Both the position numbers and the translations under genes were made by a program. The notes under the pieces were generated by a model that saw only the letters and a program-made list of their open reading frames with translations, ran no database searches and had not been told where the DNA came from. Of a stretch of 64,000 nucleotides of DNA, positions 48,771 to 56,050 are shown one piece after another (the first letter of the stretch is position 1; every line of letters starts with the position of its first letter). The stretch is from Myxococcota bacterium (lineage in GTDB: Bacteria; Myxococcota_A; UBA796; CAJQPC01), in contig JAZAMN010000004.1 in assembly GCA_036229005.1 (NCBI GenBank), forward strand, positions 96,001 to 160,000, given 5' to 3'.

Positions 48771-49850
48771 ATGGACCGACTCCCCCAGCACATGGGGGTG
48801 CTGCAGATCGAACTCACCGATCTCTGCAACCTGAGCTGCAGCATGTGTGCCCCTCACCACGAGGGGTGGGCCACCGTGCACGGGATCCCGAAAGGCAAGA
48901 TGGACTTCGCCGTCTACGAGGCGATCGTGGGGCGTCTGGCCGCCGAGGACTGTCGCTTCGACCACATCATCTTCCAGTGGCTGGGGGATCCCTCGCTGCA
49001 CAGCCGGCTGGAGGACATGCTGGCCCTGGCCCAGGAGCGGCTGGGGGACCGGGTGGGCTACCTGCGGGTGGACACCAACGCCATCACCCTGACGCCCGCC
49101 CGGATGGATCGGCTGGTGGAGCTCTACGCCCGGCACCCCCAGGTCCCGCTGCTGCTGGTGTTCACCCTGGACGCGGCGACGCCGGAGACCTACCGCCGCG
49201 TGAAGGGGCAGGATGCGCTGGAGCGGGTGCGCCGCAACGTCCGCCGCCTCCTGATGCAGCGCGCCCGCCTGGACCTTGAGGACGTGCGCCTGAACGTGGA
49301 GCTGCAGTTCGTCCTGCAGGAGGGGAACGCCCATGAGCTGGGGCAGTTCGTCCGCTACTGGGAGCGCACGCTGGCTTGCTACGGGGGCAAGGGGCACAGC
49401 GATCTGATGATCAAGCGCCTGTCGGTGGGGGCAGGGGGTGCGGGGCAGCAGGCCGCCGACGCGCTCTATCAGCGCCGGGTGGCCGAAGAGGGGCTCCGAG
49501 CCTTCCGCTCCGACCACCTGGAGCTCAAGCTCTGGGAGTCCTCCCCCTGGGAGAAGGCGGAGCCGGGCCCCCGGCAGGCCTGTCCGGGGCTCTGGCTCAC
49601 GCCGGTGATCCGCCACGACGGGCACCTGTTGATGTGCTGCGCCGACCTGTCCTCGCAGATGGACCTGGGGCCGGTACACGAGTCCGGGTTCCGCGCTCTC
49701 TGGGAAGGTGAGCAAGCCGATGGATACCGGACAGCGCACCTCCAAGGCCGCTTCGAGGAGCTTGAGGCCTGCCGCGACTGTGGCGGAATTCAGTGGTATG
49801 ACCTGCCCATGACCCTTGTGGACGCGACCCTGGAGCGGACGGGAGCCTGA
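48771..49850 (+). CDS. Radical SAM protein with SPASM/twitch domain
   Basis: ELTDLCNLSCSMC, WLGDPSLH, DTN; C-terminal CPGLW..DG..MCCAD..CRDC. Confidence 0.9.
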   Translation: MDRLPQHMGVLQIELTDLCNLSCSMCAPHHEGWATVHGIPKGKMDFAVYEAIVGRLAAEDCRFDHIIFQWLGDPSLHSRLEDMLALAQERLGDRVGYLRVDTNAITLTPARMDRLVELYARHPQVPLLLVFTLDAATPETYRRVKGQDALERVRRNVRRLLMQRARLDLEDVRLNVELQFVLQEGNAHELGQFVRYWERTLACYGGKGHSDLMIKRLSVGAGGAGQQAADALYQRRVAEEGLRAFRSDHLELKLWESSPWEKAEPGPRQACPGLWLTPVIRHDGHLLMCCADLSSQMDLGPVHESGFRALWEGEQADGYRTAHLQGRFEELEACRDCGGIQWYDLPMTLVDATLERTGA

Positions 49851-49851
49851 G

Positions 49852-51345
49852 TTGCCTTGGCTGACCCTGGGAGTCCTGGCCGCCTGCACGGACCCTGTCG
49901 CCGGGGAGTCCGGGGACAGCGCGCTCGACCCGAGGCTCGAACTGGGCCCGGTTCAGCGCTGTGAGCAGCCGGGGGAGCTCGCCTATGCCGAGGTCGGACA
50001 GGCGCAGGGATTGGTGCCGCCGGGTGTGGTGCCCGAGCACATGGAGGACGCCGGCACGCTGCTGTTGACCGACCTGGACGGGGATGGGCACCCGGAGCTG
50101 CTGCACGGCTGGTTCGACGAGTTCCTGCTTGTGCATGGGCTGGGCGGGCCGGAGCCATGGAGCGAGCGGCTGCCCTTTGGAGTGGCCGGGCTGGTGGTGC
50201 TGCCGGAGACCGGACACCTGGCCTTCCTCTCGGAGGGGCTGTTCATGGTGGATCCCGGTTCGTGGACCGTGAAGGGGCTCGTGGAGGGCGAGATCGACGG
50301 GCGGCTGCGCAGCCCCTCGGTGGGCGACTTCGATGGGGACGGGGTGCCGGACCTCTTTGTCCCCCGGGGTCACCCCGAGGACCCGGCGCAGCGCACCGAT
50401 CTGGTGTTGTGGGGGCGCGGCGGCGATGCGTTCGTGCTGGAGGAGCTGCCTGTGAGCCTGAGCGGAGAGGCCTTCGACAGCCAGGCGCTGGACTGGAACG
50501 GTGACGGCCTGCTGGACGTCTACGTGGACAACGATCGCGGGGAGACCCGGGGGCACAACCAGCTCTTTGTGGGCGGCGCGCACGGTCTGGAGGCGGCGAC
50601 CGACCAGTGCGGCGCCTGCAACCTGGCGCACAGCGGGATGGGGGCCCACGCGGGGGACGTGAACGGCGACGGCGCCCCCGATCTGCTGTTGGCGGGCACG
50701 CGCTACGCCGAGCTGCTGCTCAGCACCGGGCCTGGCGCTCCGCTCGTGCAGCAGCCCTCCAGTGTGCTGCCGGACCTGGGCTCCGCCGGCATGTATTGGG
50801 GGGGCGTCATCACCGACGTGGACAACGATGGGCGCCCCGACCTCTGGCTGGCCACGGGCCCGCAGAGCTACCCCGAGTTGGGGACCGGGGTGGTGGTCGG
50901 CGACCCTACGCCCCCGGTCCTGGCCCTCCAACAGGCCGACGGTGGGTTCGTGGACGCGGCCGCCAGCTTGGGGCTCGCCGAGCCGGGGGTGTGGCGCGCC
51001 ACCCTCGCCTGGGACCTGAACGGGGACGGGGTGCTCGACCTGCTGCTGGGCTCAGCCACCGAGCGGCCGCTGCTGTTCATGAGTCAGGGCTGCACGGAGA
51101 ACGCCTGGCTCCAGGTCGACGGCCCCGAGGGCACCCGGGTCGAGGTGGAGACCGCGGCCGGCGTACAGGTGGGCTGGGTGAGCGCCGAGCAGGGCTATGA
51201 GTCCCGCGCTCCGGCGCGGCTGCACCTGGGCCTGGGCCCGCACGAGGAGATCCTCTCTCTGCGCGTGCGGGTCCCTGGAGAGGCCCAGAGCCACAGCGCC
51301 GGCCCCCTGGAGGCCCGGCGCGTGATCACGGTGCAGACGGACTGA
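49852..51345 (+). CDS. FG-GAP repeat / ASPIC-UnbV (CRTAC1-like) lipoprotein
   Basis: Multiple D-x-D/N-G-D-G-x-x-D-L repeats; LHLGLG near the C-terminus; LAAC. Confidence 0.85.
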   Translation: MPWLTLGVLAACTDPVAGESGDSALDPRLELGPVQRCEQPGELAYAEVGQAQGLVPPGVVPEHMEDAGTLLLTDLDGDGHPELLHGWFDEFLLVHGLGGPEPWSERLPFGVAGLVVLPETGHLAFLSEGLFMVDPGSWTVKGLVEGEIDGRLRSPSVGDFDGDGVPDLFVPRGHPEDPAQRTDLVLWGRGGDAFVLEELPVSLSGEAFDSQALDWNGDGLLDVYVDNDRGETRGHNQLFVGGAHGLEAATDQCGACNLAHSGMGAHAGDVNGDGAPDLLLAGTRYAELLLSTGPGAPLVQQPSSVLPDLGSAGMYWGGVITDVDNDGRPDLWLATGPQSYPELGTGVVVGDPTPPVLALQQADGGFVDAAASLGLAEPGVWRATLAWDLNGDGVLDLLLGSATERPLLFMSQGCTENAWLQVDGPEGTRVEVETAAGVQVGWVSAEQGYESRAPARLHLGLGPHEEILSLRVRVPGEAQSHSAGPLEARRVITVQTD

Positions 51346-51359
51346 GCGTTGTATGACCT

Positions 51360-51640
51360 CCACCAGGGCCAGGAACGTCTCCTGACCCTCACCATGGAGG
51401 TCTCCAGGAGAGTCGGGCCGAGCGAGCGCAAGCGAGCGAGGCCCTCCTCGACCGATGGCGTACCCTGCTGGGCATGGTCATCAGGAGAGGGTCGCCGCGA
51501 CTGAGCGAGGGCGTTGTGCCCGTTTCTGAGATTGGCGCCTTCGACCTGGCGATGAGAGCTCGGACGGTATCTCGGGGCCCGCGACGTGCGCGGTGTCCCC
51601 GCATGCACAAGTGCGGGTGCTCGCCAGTCGTCGAGGCTCC
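51360..51640 (+). ncRNA. Predicted IS110 bridge RNA (boundaries approximate)
   Basis: Two hairpins with internal loops carrying GACTGAGCG/TTCTGAG (target) and CGGTATCT/CATGCACAAG (donor) matches. Confidence 0.8.
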
Positions 51641-51664
51641 TGGAGGCTTCCTTCGGAGGACGTG

Positions 51665-52840
51665 ATGAAGCACTACGCCGGCATCGATGTGGGCAAGGGC
51701 AAGCACTGGCTTGCCATCGTCGACGAGGACGACAAGGTCGTCTTCAAGTCCAAGGGCTTCCCGGAGACGCGGGAGGGCTTTGAAGCCATGAACGAGGTGC
51801 TGGAGCAGCATTCAATTGCGCTCCTCGCGCTCGAGGCCACCGGTCACTACTGGAAGAACCTCTTCGTCGAGCTGGTGGCCGTCGCGGGCTTGCAGGTCGC
51901 CTTGGTCAACCCTCGGCGCACGGCGGCCTTCGCCAAGGAGGAGCAGACACGCGTCAAGACGGACGCGGCGGACGCACTCGCCATCGCCCGCTTCTGCCGT
52001 CAGAAGCGTCCTGAGGCGACCGGCCTCGGTGACCTGGCCCTGGAGACCCTGCGCGAGCTCGTCCGCCTGCGGGATCGACTCGTCCAGGACCGCAGCGACC
52101 GTCTCCGGCAGCTCCATCGCGCCATGGATCTCGCCTTCCCGGAGTTCCCCAAGCTGGTCACCCTCGACAGCCAGCTCGCCTGGACGCTGCTGCAGAAGTG
52201 GCCGACTGCGCTCGCCTTCCAAAAGGCAAAGCGCGCAAGGATCTCCGCGACCGTCTACGACGGCCGGCACCACGTCGGGCGCGAGCGCGCCGAGGCCATC
52301 CAGAGAGCGGCCAAGCGCACCGTCGGCGCCCACCAGGGCGAGGTCTGGGCGATGCAGATCCGCATGTATGCCGAAGACCTGGAGCTCTTCACCAAGCGCA
52401 TCCGGCAGCTGGATCAGGACATCGAGACCTTCCTGGATGGCCACGACGTGGGCAAGCGCATCACCACAATTCCAGGTCTGGGGCCAAACAGCGCAGCCCG
52501 CATCCTGGCGGCCGCTGACCCGACGCAGTTCCGCAGCGCGAAAGCCTTCACCGCCTACTTCGGCGTCACGCCCTATACCCGCAAGAGCGGCTCTTCCAAG
52601 ACCTCCGACCGGGCCGCCATCTCACGCATCGGCAACGCTGAGCTCCGACGCAAGCTCTGGATGCCGACCCTGACCGCCATTCAGAAGAACCCCGCCATCA
52701 AGCCCTTCTACGAGCGGCTCCGGGAGCGGGGCAAGCCACCCAAGGTCGCCTTGGTGGCCTCCATGCGGAAGCTGCTCACCGTCGTCTACGCAGTCGCGAA
52801 CCAGGGTCATGGTTTCGTCGTGAGATCAGAAACCGGTTGA
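51665..52840 (+). CDS. IS110-family transposase/recombinase
   Basis: YAGIDVGK, LEATG, KTDAADA (DEDD); RKSG catalytic Ser; SRIGNAELR; RBS GGAGG. Confidence 0.95.
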   Translation: MKHYAGIDVGKGKHWLAIVDEDDKVVFKSKGFPETREGFEAMNEVLEQHSIALLALEATGHYWKNLFVELVAVAGLQVALVNPRRTAAFAKEEQTRVKTDAADALAIARFCRQKRPEATGLGDLALETLRELVRLRDRLVQDRSDRLRQLHRAMDLAFPEFPKLVTLDSQLAWTLLQKWPTALAFQKAKRARISATVYDGRHHVGRERAEAIQRAAKRTVGAHQGEVWAMQIRMYAEDLELFTKRIRQLDQDIETFLDGHDVGKRITTIPGLGPNSAARILAAADPTQFRSAKAFTAYFGVTPYTRKSGSSKTSDRAAISRIGNAELRRKLWMPTLTAIQKNPAIKPFYERLRERGKPPKVALVASMRKLLTVVYAVANQGHGFVVRSETG

Positions 52841-52857
52841 CTGGACCAGCCGGTATC

Positions 52858-54447
52858 TCAGAATCGCCCGAAGTCCAGGTCGTCCAGGCGGATGACCGAG
52901 TTGCTCCCGTTGTCACCGACCGCGCGCTTCATGGGGACCTCCGCCTCTTCGCCGCCGCCCGCGGCCAGGTAGGCCTTGATGGCGTTGAGCATCTCCGGGT
53001 CCAGGGTGCTGGGGTCGAAGCCCTGGCCCTGCACCTCGGGGGGCTTGAGCGTGAAGCGCTTGAGGGTCTGCCGCAGGCGGTCGGTCTGTGCGGACAACTG
53101 CTCGCTCGAGGCCGCCCGCTCCTCGGCGCTCGCGGTGTTCCGCTGGGTCACGCCGTCCACCTGGCGCAGGCCGGCCTCGATCTGGGCGATGCCCTGGGCC
53201 TGCTCGTTCGACGCCACGCTGATCTCCGCGACCAGCTCGCCGACCTTGCCGACGCTCTCGACGATCTCGGCCAGCGCCTTTGCGGTCTCCCGGGCGATCG
53301 AGGTGCCCTGGTCCACGCGCTTGATGCTGCCCTCGATCATCTCGGTGGTCTCCCGGGCAGCCTTGGCGCTGCGAGCGGCCAGGTTCCGGACCTCCTCGGC
53401 GACCACCGCGAAGCCCTTGCCGTGCACACCGGCGCGCGCGGCCTCGACCGCGGCGTTCAGGGCCAGCAGGTTGGTCTGGAAGGCGATCTCGTCGATGACC
53501 TTGATGATCTTGGAGATGTTGTTGCTGGCCTCTTCGATGGAGCCCATCGCGCTGACCATGGCGTTCATGCGCTCGTCGCCGGTCGAGGCCAGATCGCCCG
53601 CCAGCGAAGCCAGCTCATTGGCCATGCTCGCGTTGCCGGCGCTCTGCTTGGTCTGCTGCGCGATCTCGGAGACCGACGCGGTGATCTCCTCCACCGCGGC
53701 CGCCTGCTGCGCTGCGCCATCGGAGAGCGCCACGGAGCTGGCCGCCACCTCCATCGCGCCGCCAGCGATCTCGTCCACCGCGACGGAGACCTGGCTGAGG
53801 ATCTCGTTCAGTCCGTCCAGGCTCCCGTTCAGCCCGTCGGCCAGCGCCGCGTGGTCTCCCTCGTACTCCTGGTCGATGTACGCCGTCAGGTCCCCCTCGG
53901 CGACGCGGCCCAGCTTCTCGCGCAGGTCGTGGATGGGCTGGATGCAGGTGTCCAGGATCTGGTTCACCTGGTCCATCATCACGCGCGCTTCGCCCTCCAG
54001 GACCGAGCTGTCCCCGCGCACGGAGAGGTCGCCGACCGAAGCCGCGTGGTGCACCCGCTCCAACTGGCCCTTGAAGCCCGACAGGAGGTTCAGATCCTCC
54101 CACTCGACCACGTTCCCGGCGTAGTTGCCGTCGGCGTCCCAGACCATCTGCACGTGCAGCCCAAAGCGCAGCTCACCCACCGGGACGGCCGCCTTCCAGG
54201 GCATTTGCGAGGCGTCGGAGAGGATGGCCTGCTGCTTGTGGCTCTGCTTGTGGAACACCGCCACCGGCTTGCCGACGATGTCCTCCGGGGAGAAGTCCGG
54301 GAACATGCTCCGCAGGTAGTCCGCGTAGCGATGGAACATCTCCAGCATCGCGGGCGAGGCGTAGGTGATCACCTGATCGGCGTCGCAGATGAGCATGCAG
54401 CTACTGGAGTGCTCCAGAGCGGCCAAGTAAGGGCTGGGGGATGCCAC
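52858..54447 (-). CDS. Soluble PAS/HAMP methyl-accepting chemotaxis protein
   Basis: [38 protein letters not shown]; no TM; GTG after GGAGG. Confidence 0.93.
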
Positions 54448-54505
54448 GGGACCTCCTGTGCAAGGGAACAACGGCACCGGAATCCCAAGGTTGAGCCAAA
54501 GTCTT

Positions 54506-56050
54506 TCAGCCTGATCCCCGTCCTCCGCGGATGCTCCGCGCGAGCGCATCCAGCCGCGCCCCAAGTCCACTGGCCCGCAGCTCGGCCTCCTGGGCCCGCA
54601 GCTCCGCCTCCGCCAGCAGCCCCCGAAGCTGATCCCGATCACGGTCCCCCGCGCGCAGCTCCGCGTTCTTCTTGGCCAGCTCCGCCCGCGCCTCGGCCAG
54701 CAGCCGCTCCAGGCCCTGGACCTCCCTCGCTAGCCCCTGCCCCTGCGCACCCATCACCGCGATGGCCTCGCGCTTGAACCCAGCCACCTCCTCCAGTCCG
54801 CGGGCCATGTCCGCGATCGTGGTGGTCAGCTCAGCCACTTGCGCGCTCAGCCCCTCGACCTCCTGGCGCTTCTGGACCACCTCGCGCTCCGCCCGACCCT
54901 GGGCCGCCGCCGCTGCCTCCAGCTTTCCGAGGAGGGATCCCACCTGTACGGACAGCTCGGCTGCACCTCCCAGAGCCGGAGCCCCCTTCTCCCGGGGCCT
55001 GGGATCCTGGGCCCAAGCGAGGAGACCCGCAGCCACCCGGTCCCAGGCCATCTCCCCGGCCAGCGCCCGCGCCGCCTCCGAGCGCGCCTGCAGCTCCGGA
55101 CCGCCCTCCAGCACCGCGTCCAGCGCGTCCTCGAGCGAGCCACCCACCCAGCCTGCGCCCGCCGCGTCCACCCGAGCGCTCAGGGGGTGGAAGTCGCCTG
55201 TGATCAGCGGAAGACCGCACCCCAGGCTGTCCACGTGCCGGAAGGCCAGCGCCAGCTCCCGCTCAAAGTGCGGCTGCATCCAGTCCAGCGCCGCCCAGCC
55301 CTGGCTGTAGCGCGCCAGGAGCTGGTGGTAGGGCAGGCGGGCGTCCTCGATGACCAGGCGCTTGCTCTGGGGCAGCCGGGGGGCGTCCACCCCGTGCCCC
55401 ACGCCGGGCTGACCGCCCAGCACCACGATCCGCCCCTTGCGCCGCTTCTCCAGGTGCGCCACGGCGCGCTCCAGCCCGGGGAGGGGGTCGATCCACGGCC
55501 AGGCCACCCCGCCCATCAGGATCTCGGGGTGTCGGCTGCGCTTGCCGGGGGCCACCTGCGGCGCGGCCAGAGGGACCACCGCACCCAGCGCCGGGTCCAT
55601 GCCGGCGAGCACCATCAAGCCCAGGTTGAACCAGCGCTGTCGCTCGTTGGAGAAGAGCACGAAGTCGGCCGCGTGTAGGGCCGTCAGGGTGTGCTCAGCG
55701 GCCTTGGCGGTCGCCCCCTGAAAGTGCGCCTCCAGCAGCCGCGGCGCGTAGAGATCCACGCACAGCGGCGCGATCCCGGCGAGCGCGTGGGCCTCCTCGG
55801 GCTGCACGCACAGGATGGCCCCCGGCTGGATCGCCTGCGCCATGCGCCGGAGCTGGTCGGCGTCCTGGAAGCCCGGCGGGTCCCCCGGCAGCGTGTCCTG
55901 CGCCCGGGTCAGCGGGATCACCTGATGCCCGGCGGCCTCCAGGGCCCGCTTGTGGTTCCCCGCCCGGATCGCCCCGCCGGAGCCCGGTCGCGTGGAGGCC
56001 GGGCCCTGCTCGGCGGGCAGGACGCCATGAAACACCATCAGGATGCGCAT
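54506..56050 (-). CDS. GT-B-like glycosyltransferase with long C-terminal coiled coil
   Basis: MRILMV start, [28 protein letters not shown]; heptad-rich tail. Confidence 0.7.

Follow-up and report, generated by a model that had tools for sequence, protein, structure and literature searches.

A bridge RNA with two TGA-containing target guides probably places copies of a Myxococcota IS110 element between convergent genes

The window analysed here, a stretch of 64,000 nucleotides (nt) from a Myxococcota bacterium (assembly GCA_036229005.1, contig JAZAMN010000004.1, positions 96,001 to 160,000), carries an IS110 insertion element at positions 51350-52858, between two convergent host genes. The recombinase gene of the element is preceded by a non-coding left end that encodes a bridge RNA, and both target guides of this RNA contain TGA. 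We consider it likely that the element is active, that it recombines in the manner of IS621, and that its double-TGA guide places its copies between convergent genes. The class of system is known; the target logic, convergent stop codons, is the new part. The features of the locus, with window coordinates and strand, are:

49816..51345, + strand: host gene with FG-GAP repeats and an ASPIC/UnbV domain; the left target takes in its TGA stop (51343-51345)
51340..51349, + strand: left target (51340-51347, matching the left target guide at 8 of 8 positions) and GT core (51348-51349)
51350..52858, + strand: IS110 element of 1509 bp, with the right CT core counted in; same ends in three other copies
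51350..51357, + strand: right donor half (51350-51354) and -10-like hexamer (51352-51357); read from the sequence, with a putative promoter role by comparison with IS621 (PMC11208160)
51365..51444, + strand: 5' hairpins of the left end, one of which (51415-51444) resembles repetitive extragenic palindromic (REP) elements
51478..51641, + strand: two-loop core of the bridge RNA, with approximate ends, from the alignment of relatives
51499..51508, + strand: left target guide, with TGA at 51502-51504
51509..51521, + strand: inner stem-loop of the target loop, one base off its position in relatives
51524..51532, + strand: right target guide (7 nt, with TGA) and handshake guide AT (51531-51532)
51564..51572, + strand: left donor guide, its first base mismatching the element's own donor
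51603..51613, + strand: right donor guide with a 2-nt bulge (51605-51606) and handshake TG (51612-51613)
51665..52840, + strand: recombinase, 391 amino acids, with D8, E57, D100, D103 and S308 and the wedge residues W332, M333 and L336
52837..52842, + strand: -35-like hexamer, 22 nt before the cut
52850..52863, + strand: left donor half (52850-52856), CT core (52857-52858) and right target (52859-52863), placed by sequence and by the other copies
52858..54642, - strand: host gene for a methyl-accepting chemotaxis protein (MCP); the core T forms part of its TGA stop (52860-52858)

The element and its recombinase

The preliminary description of this locus, made without database searches, had proposed that an intact IS110 element is present and that its bridge RNA is of the IS621 type, and the recombinase, the covariation of the RNA and the guide-matching flanks bear this out. 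The non-coding left end measures 315 bp (51350-51664), the length given in that description, and the right end 18 nt; the long non-coding end with a guide RNA 5' of the gene points to the IS110 group rather than to IS1111. The genome holds four copies with identical end positions, the window copy being accompanied by six more end pieces (three left, three right) that lie at contig breaks and are 99-100% identical; the pairing of left with right ends is established for the window copy only, the other three copies being unlinked. Insertion takes place at a short core and leaves no long duplication of the target, the core T alone being common to both sides, and contigs with the empty site from two other studies (runs X6 and X7) skip exactly 1509 nt. 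Strains differ both in occupied sites and in empty alleles, and the runs that contain the element are marine metagenomes. The element is thus polymorphic in presence and absence; it is probably active and apparently mobile.

The junctions are consistent with IS621 chemistry, the target core being kept at the left junction and the donor core at the right one. The core is CT at three of the four left junctions in the genome and at 92 of 103 left junctions in the clade of relatives; it is GT in the window copy only, and the empty site in run X7 carries GT as well. The nine-letter match between the RNA from 51499 and the left flank (51340-51348) is real, although its ninth base is the G of the GT core and is found in this copy only. 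A programmed core mismatch was dropped as an explanation of GT, since the core is CT in three of the four copies and IS621 tolerates GT (PMC11208158). An abundant strain in run X6 has the empty site and a chemotaxis gene that stops with TAA instead of TGA (window position 52859), an allele that mismatches the right guide, though run X6 also contains the element.

Joining of the two ends in a circle would create a predicted promoter with a spacer of 18 nt in the window element; in the clade, the -35-like hexamer stands at a fixed distance in 87 of 91 elements and 21 nt before the cut in 84 of 91. The right end also presents an outward consensus-like promoter, composed of the -35 hexamer and flank (52837-52864) and antisense to the chemotaxis gene. 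Relatives usually have a spacing of 61 nt; the left end of the window element exceeds this by about 78 nt, and the REP-like hairpin lies in the extra part.

The recombinase combines an N-terminal DEDD RuvC-like domain (PF01548, E 9.8e-35) with a C-terminal Tnp domain (PF02371, E 8.5e-22), and D8, E57, D100, D103 and S308-G309 are invariant across 54 sequences. Its only sequence relatives in the PDB are IS621 and ISCro4 (phmmer E 2e-34 and 6e-37; 27-28% identity), which are also the top fold matches of the predicted model (pLDDT, the predicted local distance difference test score, 88.6). Some 70-80 helical residues are added between the coiled-coil helices relative to IS621; this helical insert (residues ~160-225) is confidently modelled, conserved in the clade and missing from both IS621 and ISCro4. 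Among 154 genomes of the order, matches at E 1e-60 occur in two, the source genome and one other (G020); no relative above 60% identity was obtained with its DNA context, and plasmids yielded two records at 49%. Protein matches were obtained at 165 loci, contigs in which the single protein had found nothing being scanned with an alignment; 117 RNAs were parsed from these loci, and the 48 unparsable loci were dropped.

Fold and guides of the bridge RNA

The two hairpins with internal loops that had been proposed for the left end are supported by an alignment of 100 relatives, in which 97.6% of cells are paired and 19 of 26 pairs show compensatory changes; pairing this high was reached in 0 of 500 shuffles, a control that leans favourable because the structure was predicted from the same alignment. 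Folding of the single sequence supports the proposal in part, since both loops form in a 332-nt stretch only (z -3.3), whereas a 176-nt stretch folds without the donor loop (z -1.8). No Rfam family scored above threshold for the RNA. In IS621 numbering (PMC11208158), the window RNA shows a GT linker, a right target guide of 7 nt and the handshake AT; its left donor guide measures 8 nt, and two bases of its right donor guide are flipped out.

All of the guide matches quoted in the preliminary description were found in place: 51524-51530 is the reverse complement of 52857-52863, and 51565-51572 is identical to 52851-52858. When the non-coding end was shuffled 20,000 times by base, the three matches recurred at frequencies of 0.0022, 0.012 and 0.003, while no shuffle of the 20,000 contained them all. 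The right target match reaches 9 nt, its AT (51531-51532) pairing with the donor like the IS621 handshake guide; 87 of 106 elements have this target-loop handshake AT, as does the window element. Pairing of the donor-loop handshake base to target position 7 is seen in 75 of 94 relatives; in the window element this base is T and faces C at three of four sites.

The two readings previously offered for the right donor guide, CATGCA and CACAAG, are both unlikely; the guide is better read as AT, a bulged GC, and ACAAG. This bulged register follows from pairing at donor position 14, which is paired by the first guide base in 98 of 98 elements (A:T in 75, T:A in 22, G:T in one); the two bulged bases vary freely among relatives, and a strain variant alters 51606. 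At donor position 5, guide and element end pair in 86 of 91 elements, a count that is partly circular in that the guide helped to locate the end. The likeness of the donor to that of IS621 holds, positions 6-14 being identical to those in the structure paper (PMC11208158).

Among relatives, right target guides match their own flanks, over positions 12-14, at 214 of 234 bases against a shuffled mean of 75 (78 of 89 loci counted, with six misparsed loci and short flanks excluded), and left target guides at 315 of 602 against 204. The other copies in the genome likewise have flanks that match the loop-1 guides, the check that had been named as able to refute the bridge RNA. Natural covariation of guides and flanks suggests that the window ortholog is reprogrammable. 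The left guide deviates from the clade in its register: at the window site it matches 0 of 8 positions at the standard offset of 0 and 8 of 8 at +1, and the other left junctions lie at +1 or +2 (one is ambiguous), whereas the best offset of relatives is 0 in 60 of 86. A one-base shift of the inner stem may be the cause of the +1 offset. The left target guide is followed by GA in the window element and mostly by TT, TG or TC in relatives.

Stop codons at the target sites

The earlier reading, in which the guides were decodable and matched the junctions, was sound as far as it went; it overlooked the stop codons that the guides encode. At all eight junctions of the four copies, a frame of 119-1040 codons points at the element and ends on the TGA read by a guide. 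Pfam domains are in frame at seven of these junctions (FG-GAP/ASPIC, MCP, MopE-like, HDOD, CorA, TPR/winged helix and CheX); the frame at the eighth has 119 codons, a GC content at third codon positions of 0.94, and no Pfam domain. Four further junctions from runs X4 and X7 have TGA in the same place; translating 30 letters by hand makes three of them in-frame gene ends and leaves one doubtful. The flanking genes are unrelated between copies, which have the stop-codon pattern alone in common.

The host genome is 70% GC, and 78% of the 5,418 genes annotated with a codon model end in TGA. The common 11-nt target pattern occurs in it at 12 empty sites, six of which are convergent stop pairs and eight of which are non-disruptive, compared to 9.8% for any T; an 8-nt version of the pattern ranks 252nd of 22,704 motifs for non-disruptive sites. 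Between convergent stops a gap of 3 nt is commonest (33 cases, versus 11 for a 2-nt gap). Genome-wide, such gaps peak at 0, 3, 6, 9, 12 and 15 nt, which may in part be an artefact of the gene caller.

We propose that the joined ends of the element are recognized by the donor loop and a site of 14-15 nt by the target loop, each through base pairing, and that, by analogy with IS621 (PMC11208158), the top strands would be cut after the core T and exchanged with handshake pairing. The left guide would read TGA on the top strand and the right guide TGA on the bottom strand; in a 70% GC genome rich in TGA, this double pattern should mostly coincide with a convergent gene junction whose stops are 3-4 nt apart. 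Both stop codons survive insertion, since the core T is present on both sides afterwards. No sensing of stop codons would be needed, base pairing and codon bias sufficing to select the site, and host selection probably purges the remaining disruptive insertions. In every genome copy a host gene ends 4-5 nt before the left end and probably supplies read-through for the bridge RNA and the recombinase; given this gene end, and with no terminator-like site found in 51300-52900, read-through is a likely by-product of target choice. Upstream read-through is required for excision of IS621 (PMC13626964), a process for which cut-and-paste and single-strand copy-out are disputed (10.64898/2026.08.31.748434; 10.1101/2025.10.25.684509). 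If the proposal is true, the choice of target would be linked to the known need of IS110 excision for host read-through. In gene-dense, REP-free genomes, short guides would then locate harmless sites by encoding stop codons, an explanation that can be tested.

Several observations weigh against placement by the double-TGA guide. Of the empty pattern sites, half lie outside convergent pairs, so that four occupied convergent sites out of four would have a chance of about 6% from the guide alone; that the guide by itself reaches convergent sites about half the time and yet all four occupied sites are convergent suggests host selection or a further preference. There are four insertions only, and survivorship is not separable from targeting on these data. 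Placed as in relatives, the left guide would call for a gap of 2 nt, but the sites are offset by +1 or +2. Finally, the second IS110 of the genome also has a TGAG guide, yet it targets REP-like repeats.

Survivorship only, in which an arbitrary guide happens to contain two TGAs, insertions occur at all matches and the host purges the genic ones, is an unlikely account, though one to be taken seriously: none of the six non-convergent sites among the 12 empty consensus sites has an occupied counterpart, and 37 of 52 sites of relatives, whose guides are common to kin, have no Pfam-confirmed stop. It leaves aside that the guide belongs to the top 1.1% of motifs for non-disruptive sites, that the right guide ends in TGAG in 80 of 96 distinct target loops while the adjoining guide bases change freely (positions 12-14 vary), and that relatives possess a matching start codon and Shine-Dalgarno sequence; survivorship acting on guide lineages would, moreover, be the adaptive model itself.

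It is quite improbable that the TGAG of the right guide is fixed by constraints of protein or RNA, or by ancestral REP-like targets, instead of by stop codons. Its AG, which pairs with the CT core, never varies, and the second IS110 with a TGAG guide resides in REP-like repeats, with a called gene end at one of five right flanks. TG is not required, however, as 16 of 96 loops have other bases, several of which match their own flanks, and all nine non-core positions of IS621 are programmable (PMC11208160); the TGA of the left guide and the gene ends at eight of eight junctions would also be left unexplained. Very doubtful, too, is a target hairpin as second determinant, CTGA-N3-4-TCAG, whose 4-bp stem would explain the 3-4 nt gap and render the stops incidental. 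A target stem-loop is a second determinant for ISPpu10 (10.64898/2026.03.19.712850), and all left junctions are displaced by +1 or +2 from the clade register; the stem is 4 bp only and overlaps bases paired by the guide, the one-base shift of the element's own inner stem could account for +1, and the targets of most relatives are non-palindromic. That the element is a dead remnant whose matches are copies of its own flanks is scarcely credible, given an open frame with all catalytic residues, other end pieces 99-100% identical, and sites and empty alleles that differ between strains, against which stands only that no circle junction was seen in contigs of four runs, an uninformative result because contigs drop rare forms.

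Relatives and known systems

Placement between convergent genes by a double-TGA guide may be one form of a wider habit. On balance we lean towards the view that the clade uses gene punctuation as a safe harbour, the right guide being locked on TGA and the rest tuned to whatever lies on the other side. TCA occupies positions 9-11 in 76 of 89 right junctions. Genes recognized by Pfam end on the guide TGA at 15 of 52 sites of relatives, compared to 4 of 150 control CTCA sites sampled from 602 (Fisher p 4e-7, which is overstated, kin not being independent); these gene tests excluded sites with less than 190 nt of flank and scored frames below 30 codons as misses. Positions 16-18 of the left end hold an in-frame start codon on the opposite strand in 29 of 32 elements with ATGAG guides, 15 of 21 with GTGAG and 4 of 22 with CTGAG. 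A Shine-Dalgarno-like motif of at least 4 nt accompanies 36 of 52 such starts (7.7% in shuffles; 10 of 47 elements without the start), and the added codons contain a stop in 0 of 53. Where the start is present, 15 of 38 sites have a Pfam gene in the restart frame, compared to 1 of 36 where it is absent; the true gene start is unsure in four of the 15, in which the domain begins at least 25 residues in. Six sites have Pfam genes on both sides, and five or six of these are stop-start overlaps, for example ribBA-ribH and oppB-oppC (names read from Pfam families). Many relatives thus appear to aim at ATGA or GTGA, and their outward Shine-Dalgarno sequence and start codon could restart the cut gene. 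Under the safe-harbour view, the stop-start type would add about six residues (M-S-G-x-H/V-T) to the restarted gene by means of its built-in Shine-Dalgarno sequence and start, and the window type would carry instead a second TGA guide, in a shifted register fitted to the commonest, 3-nt convergent gap. On that view translation would hardly be disturbed by elements of either type, and their own expression would come from host read-through.

This view has its own difficulties beyond the many sites of relatives without a Pfam-confirmed stop. The link between guide class and start codon is largely inherited, with about five independent pairs that agree and none or one that disagrees (p ~0.06, on a tree that includes mistranslated long rows), and double-TGA loops number 12, of which only L071, L118, L155 and the window element have TGA in the left flank. 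The window element itself belongs, on a long branch, to the CTGAG-type elements without a left-end start. Self-pairing of the right guide with left-end positions 14-18 does not account for the start link, as the matching triplet occurs in 0 of 22 CTGAG elements and ATG and GTG interchange. Convergent pairs were rejected as a rule for the clade, Pfam matches occurring in only 4 of 21 left (+) frames and all lying 10-32 nt off.

The window element resembles IS621 and ISCro4/IS622 (PMC11208160, PMC11208158, PMC13626964, 10.1101/2025.05.14.653916) in its DEDD and serine residues, its two-loop RNA in the left end and its CT core, and IS621 also in the AT of the putative handshake guide, the bulged right donor guide and a predicted split promoter. 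It differs from IS621 in a recombinase that is 27-28% identical and has 391 rather than 326 amino acids, including the helical insert, in the +1/+2 offset of its left guide, and in having naturally the full 7-nt right target guide and the canonical pair at 161 that were engineered in IS621 (PMC13626964). Its insertions lie at convergent stop pairs, whereas the literature names REP elements as an example of an IS110 target (PMC11208160). IS900 of Mycobacterium avium subsp. paratuberculosis (PMC8141618) is likewise an IS110-family element directed at gene punctuation, in its case translation initiation signals, and has an antisense frame, hed, across the element; the window element aims at stop codons instead, has no left-end start codon and does not fit the IS900-like, start-targeting type. 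An antisense frame like that of IS900 was sought and rejected, being open in 0 of 46 start-carrying relatives and interrupted by at least four stops per antisense frame in the window element. ISPpu9 and ISPpu10 (PMC12288879; 10.64898/2026.03.19.712850) are bridge-RNA IS110 elements at non-disruptive intergenic sites; they target REP or one conserved intergenic sequence, in contrast to the unrelated flanking genes of the window element. We found no IS110 described in the literature as targeting stop codons or convergent pairs, although subscription papers, supplements and ISfinder notes may list some. For engineering, the window element offers a distant ortholog (27-28% identity) whose host is 70% GC, whose right guide has 7 nt by nature and whose left register is shifted, and its relatives may offer ends that restart the downstream gene after insertion into an operon.

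Within the clade, a subgroup (L021-L023, L062, L070, L133, L172) combines a right guide of CTAG type with a left end that measures about 255 nt; some members have no right end near the gene and may be longer elements. In the host genome, the second multi-copy IS110-family element is represented by its ends only (left ends on contigs C22, C29, C58 and C71; right ends on C15, C27, C29, C48 and C50); its target loop matches five of five right flanks, and it inserts in an intergenic family of REP-like repeats. A distant IS110-like frame (C52:176238-177404, 23% identity) lies amid tandem intergenic repeats, and its end pieces recur at several contig breaks.

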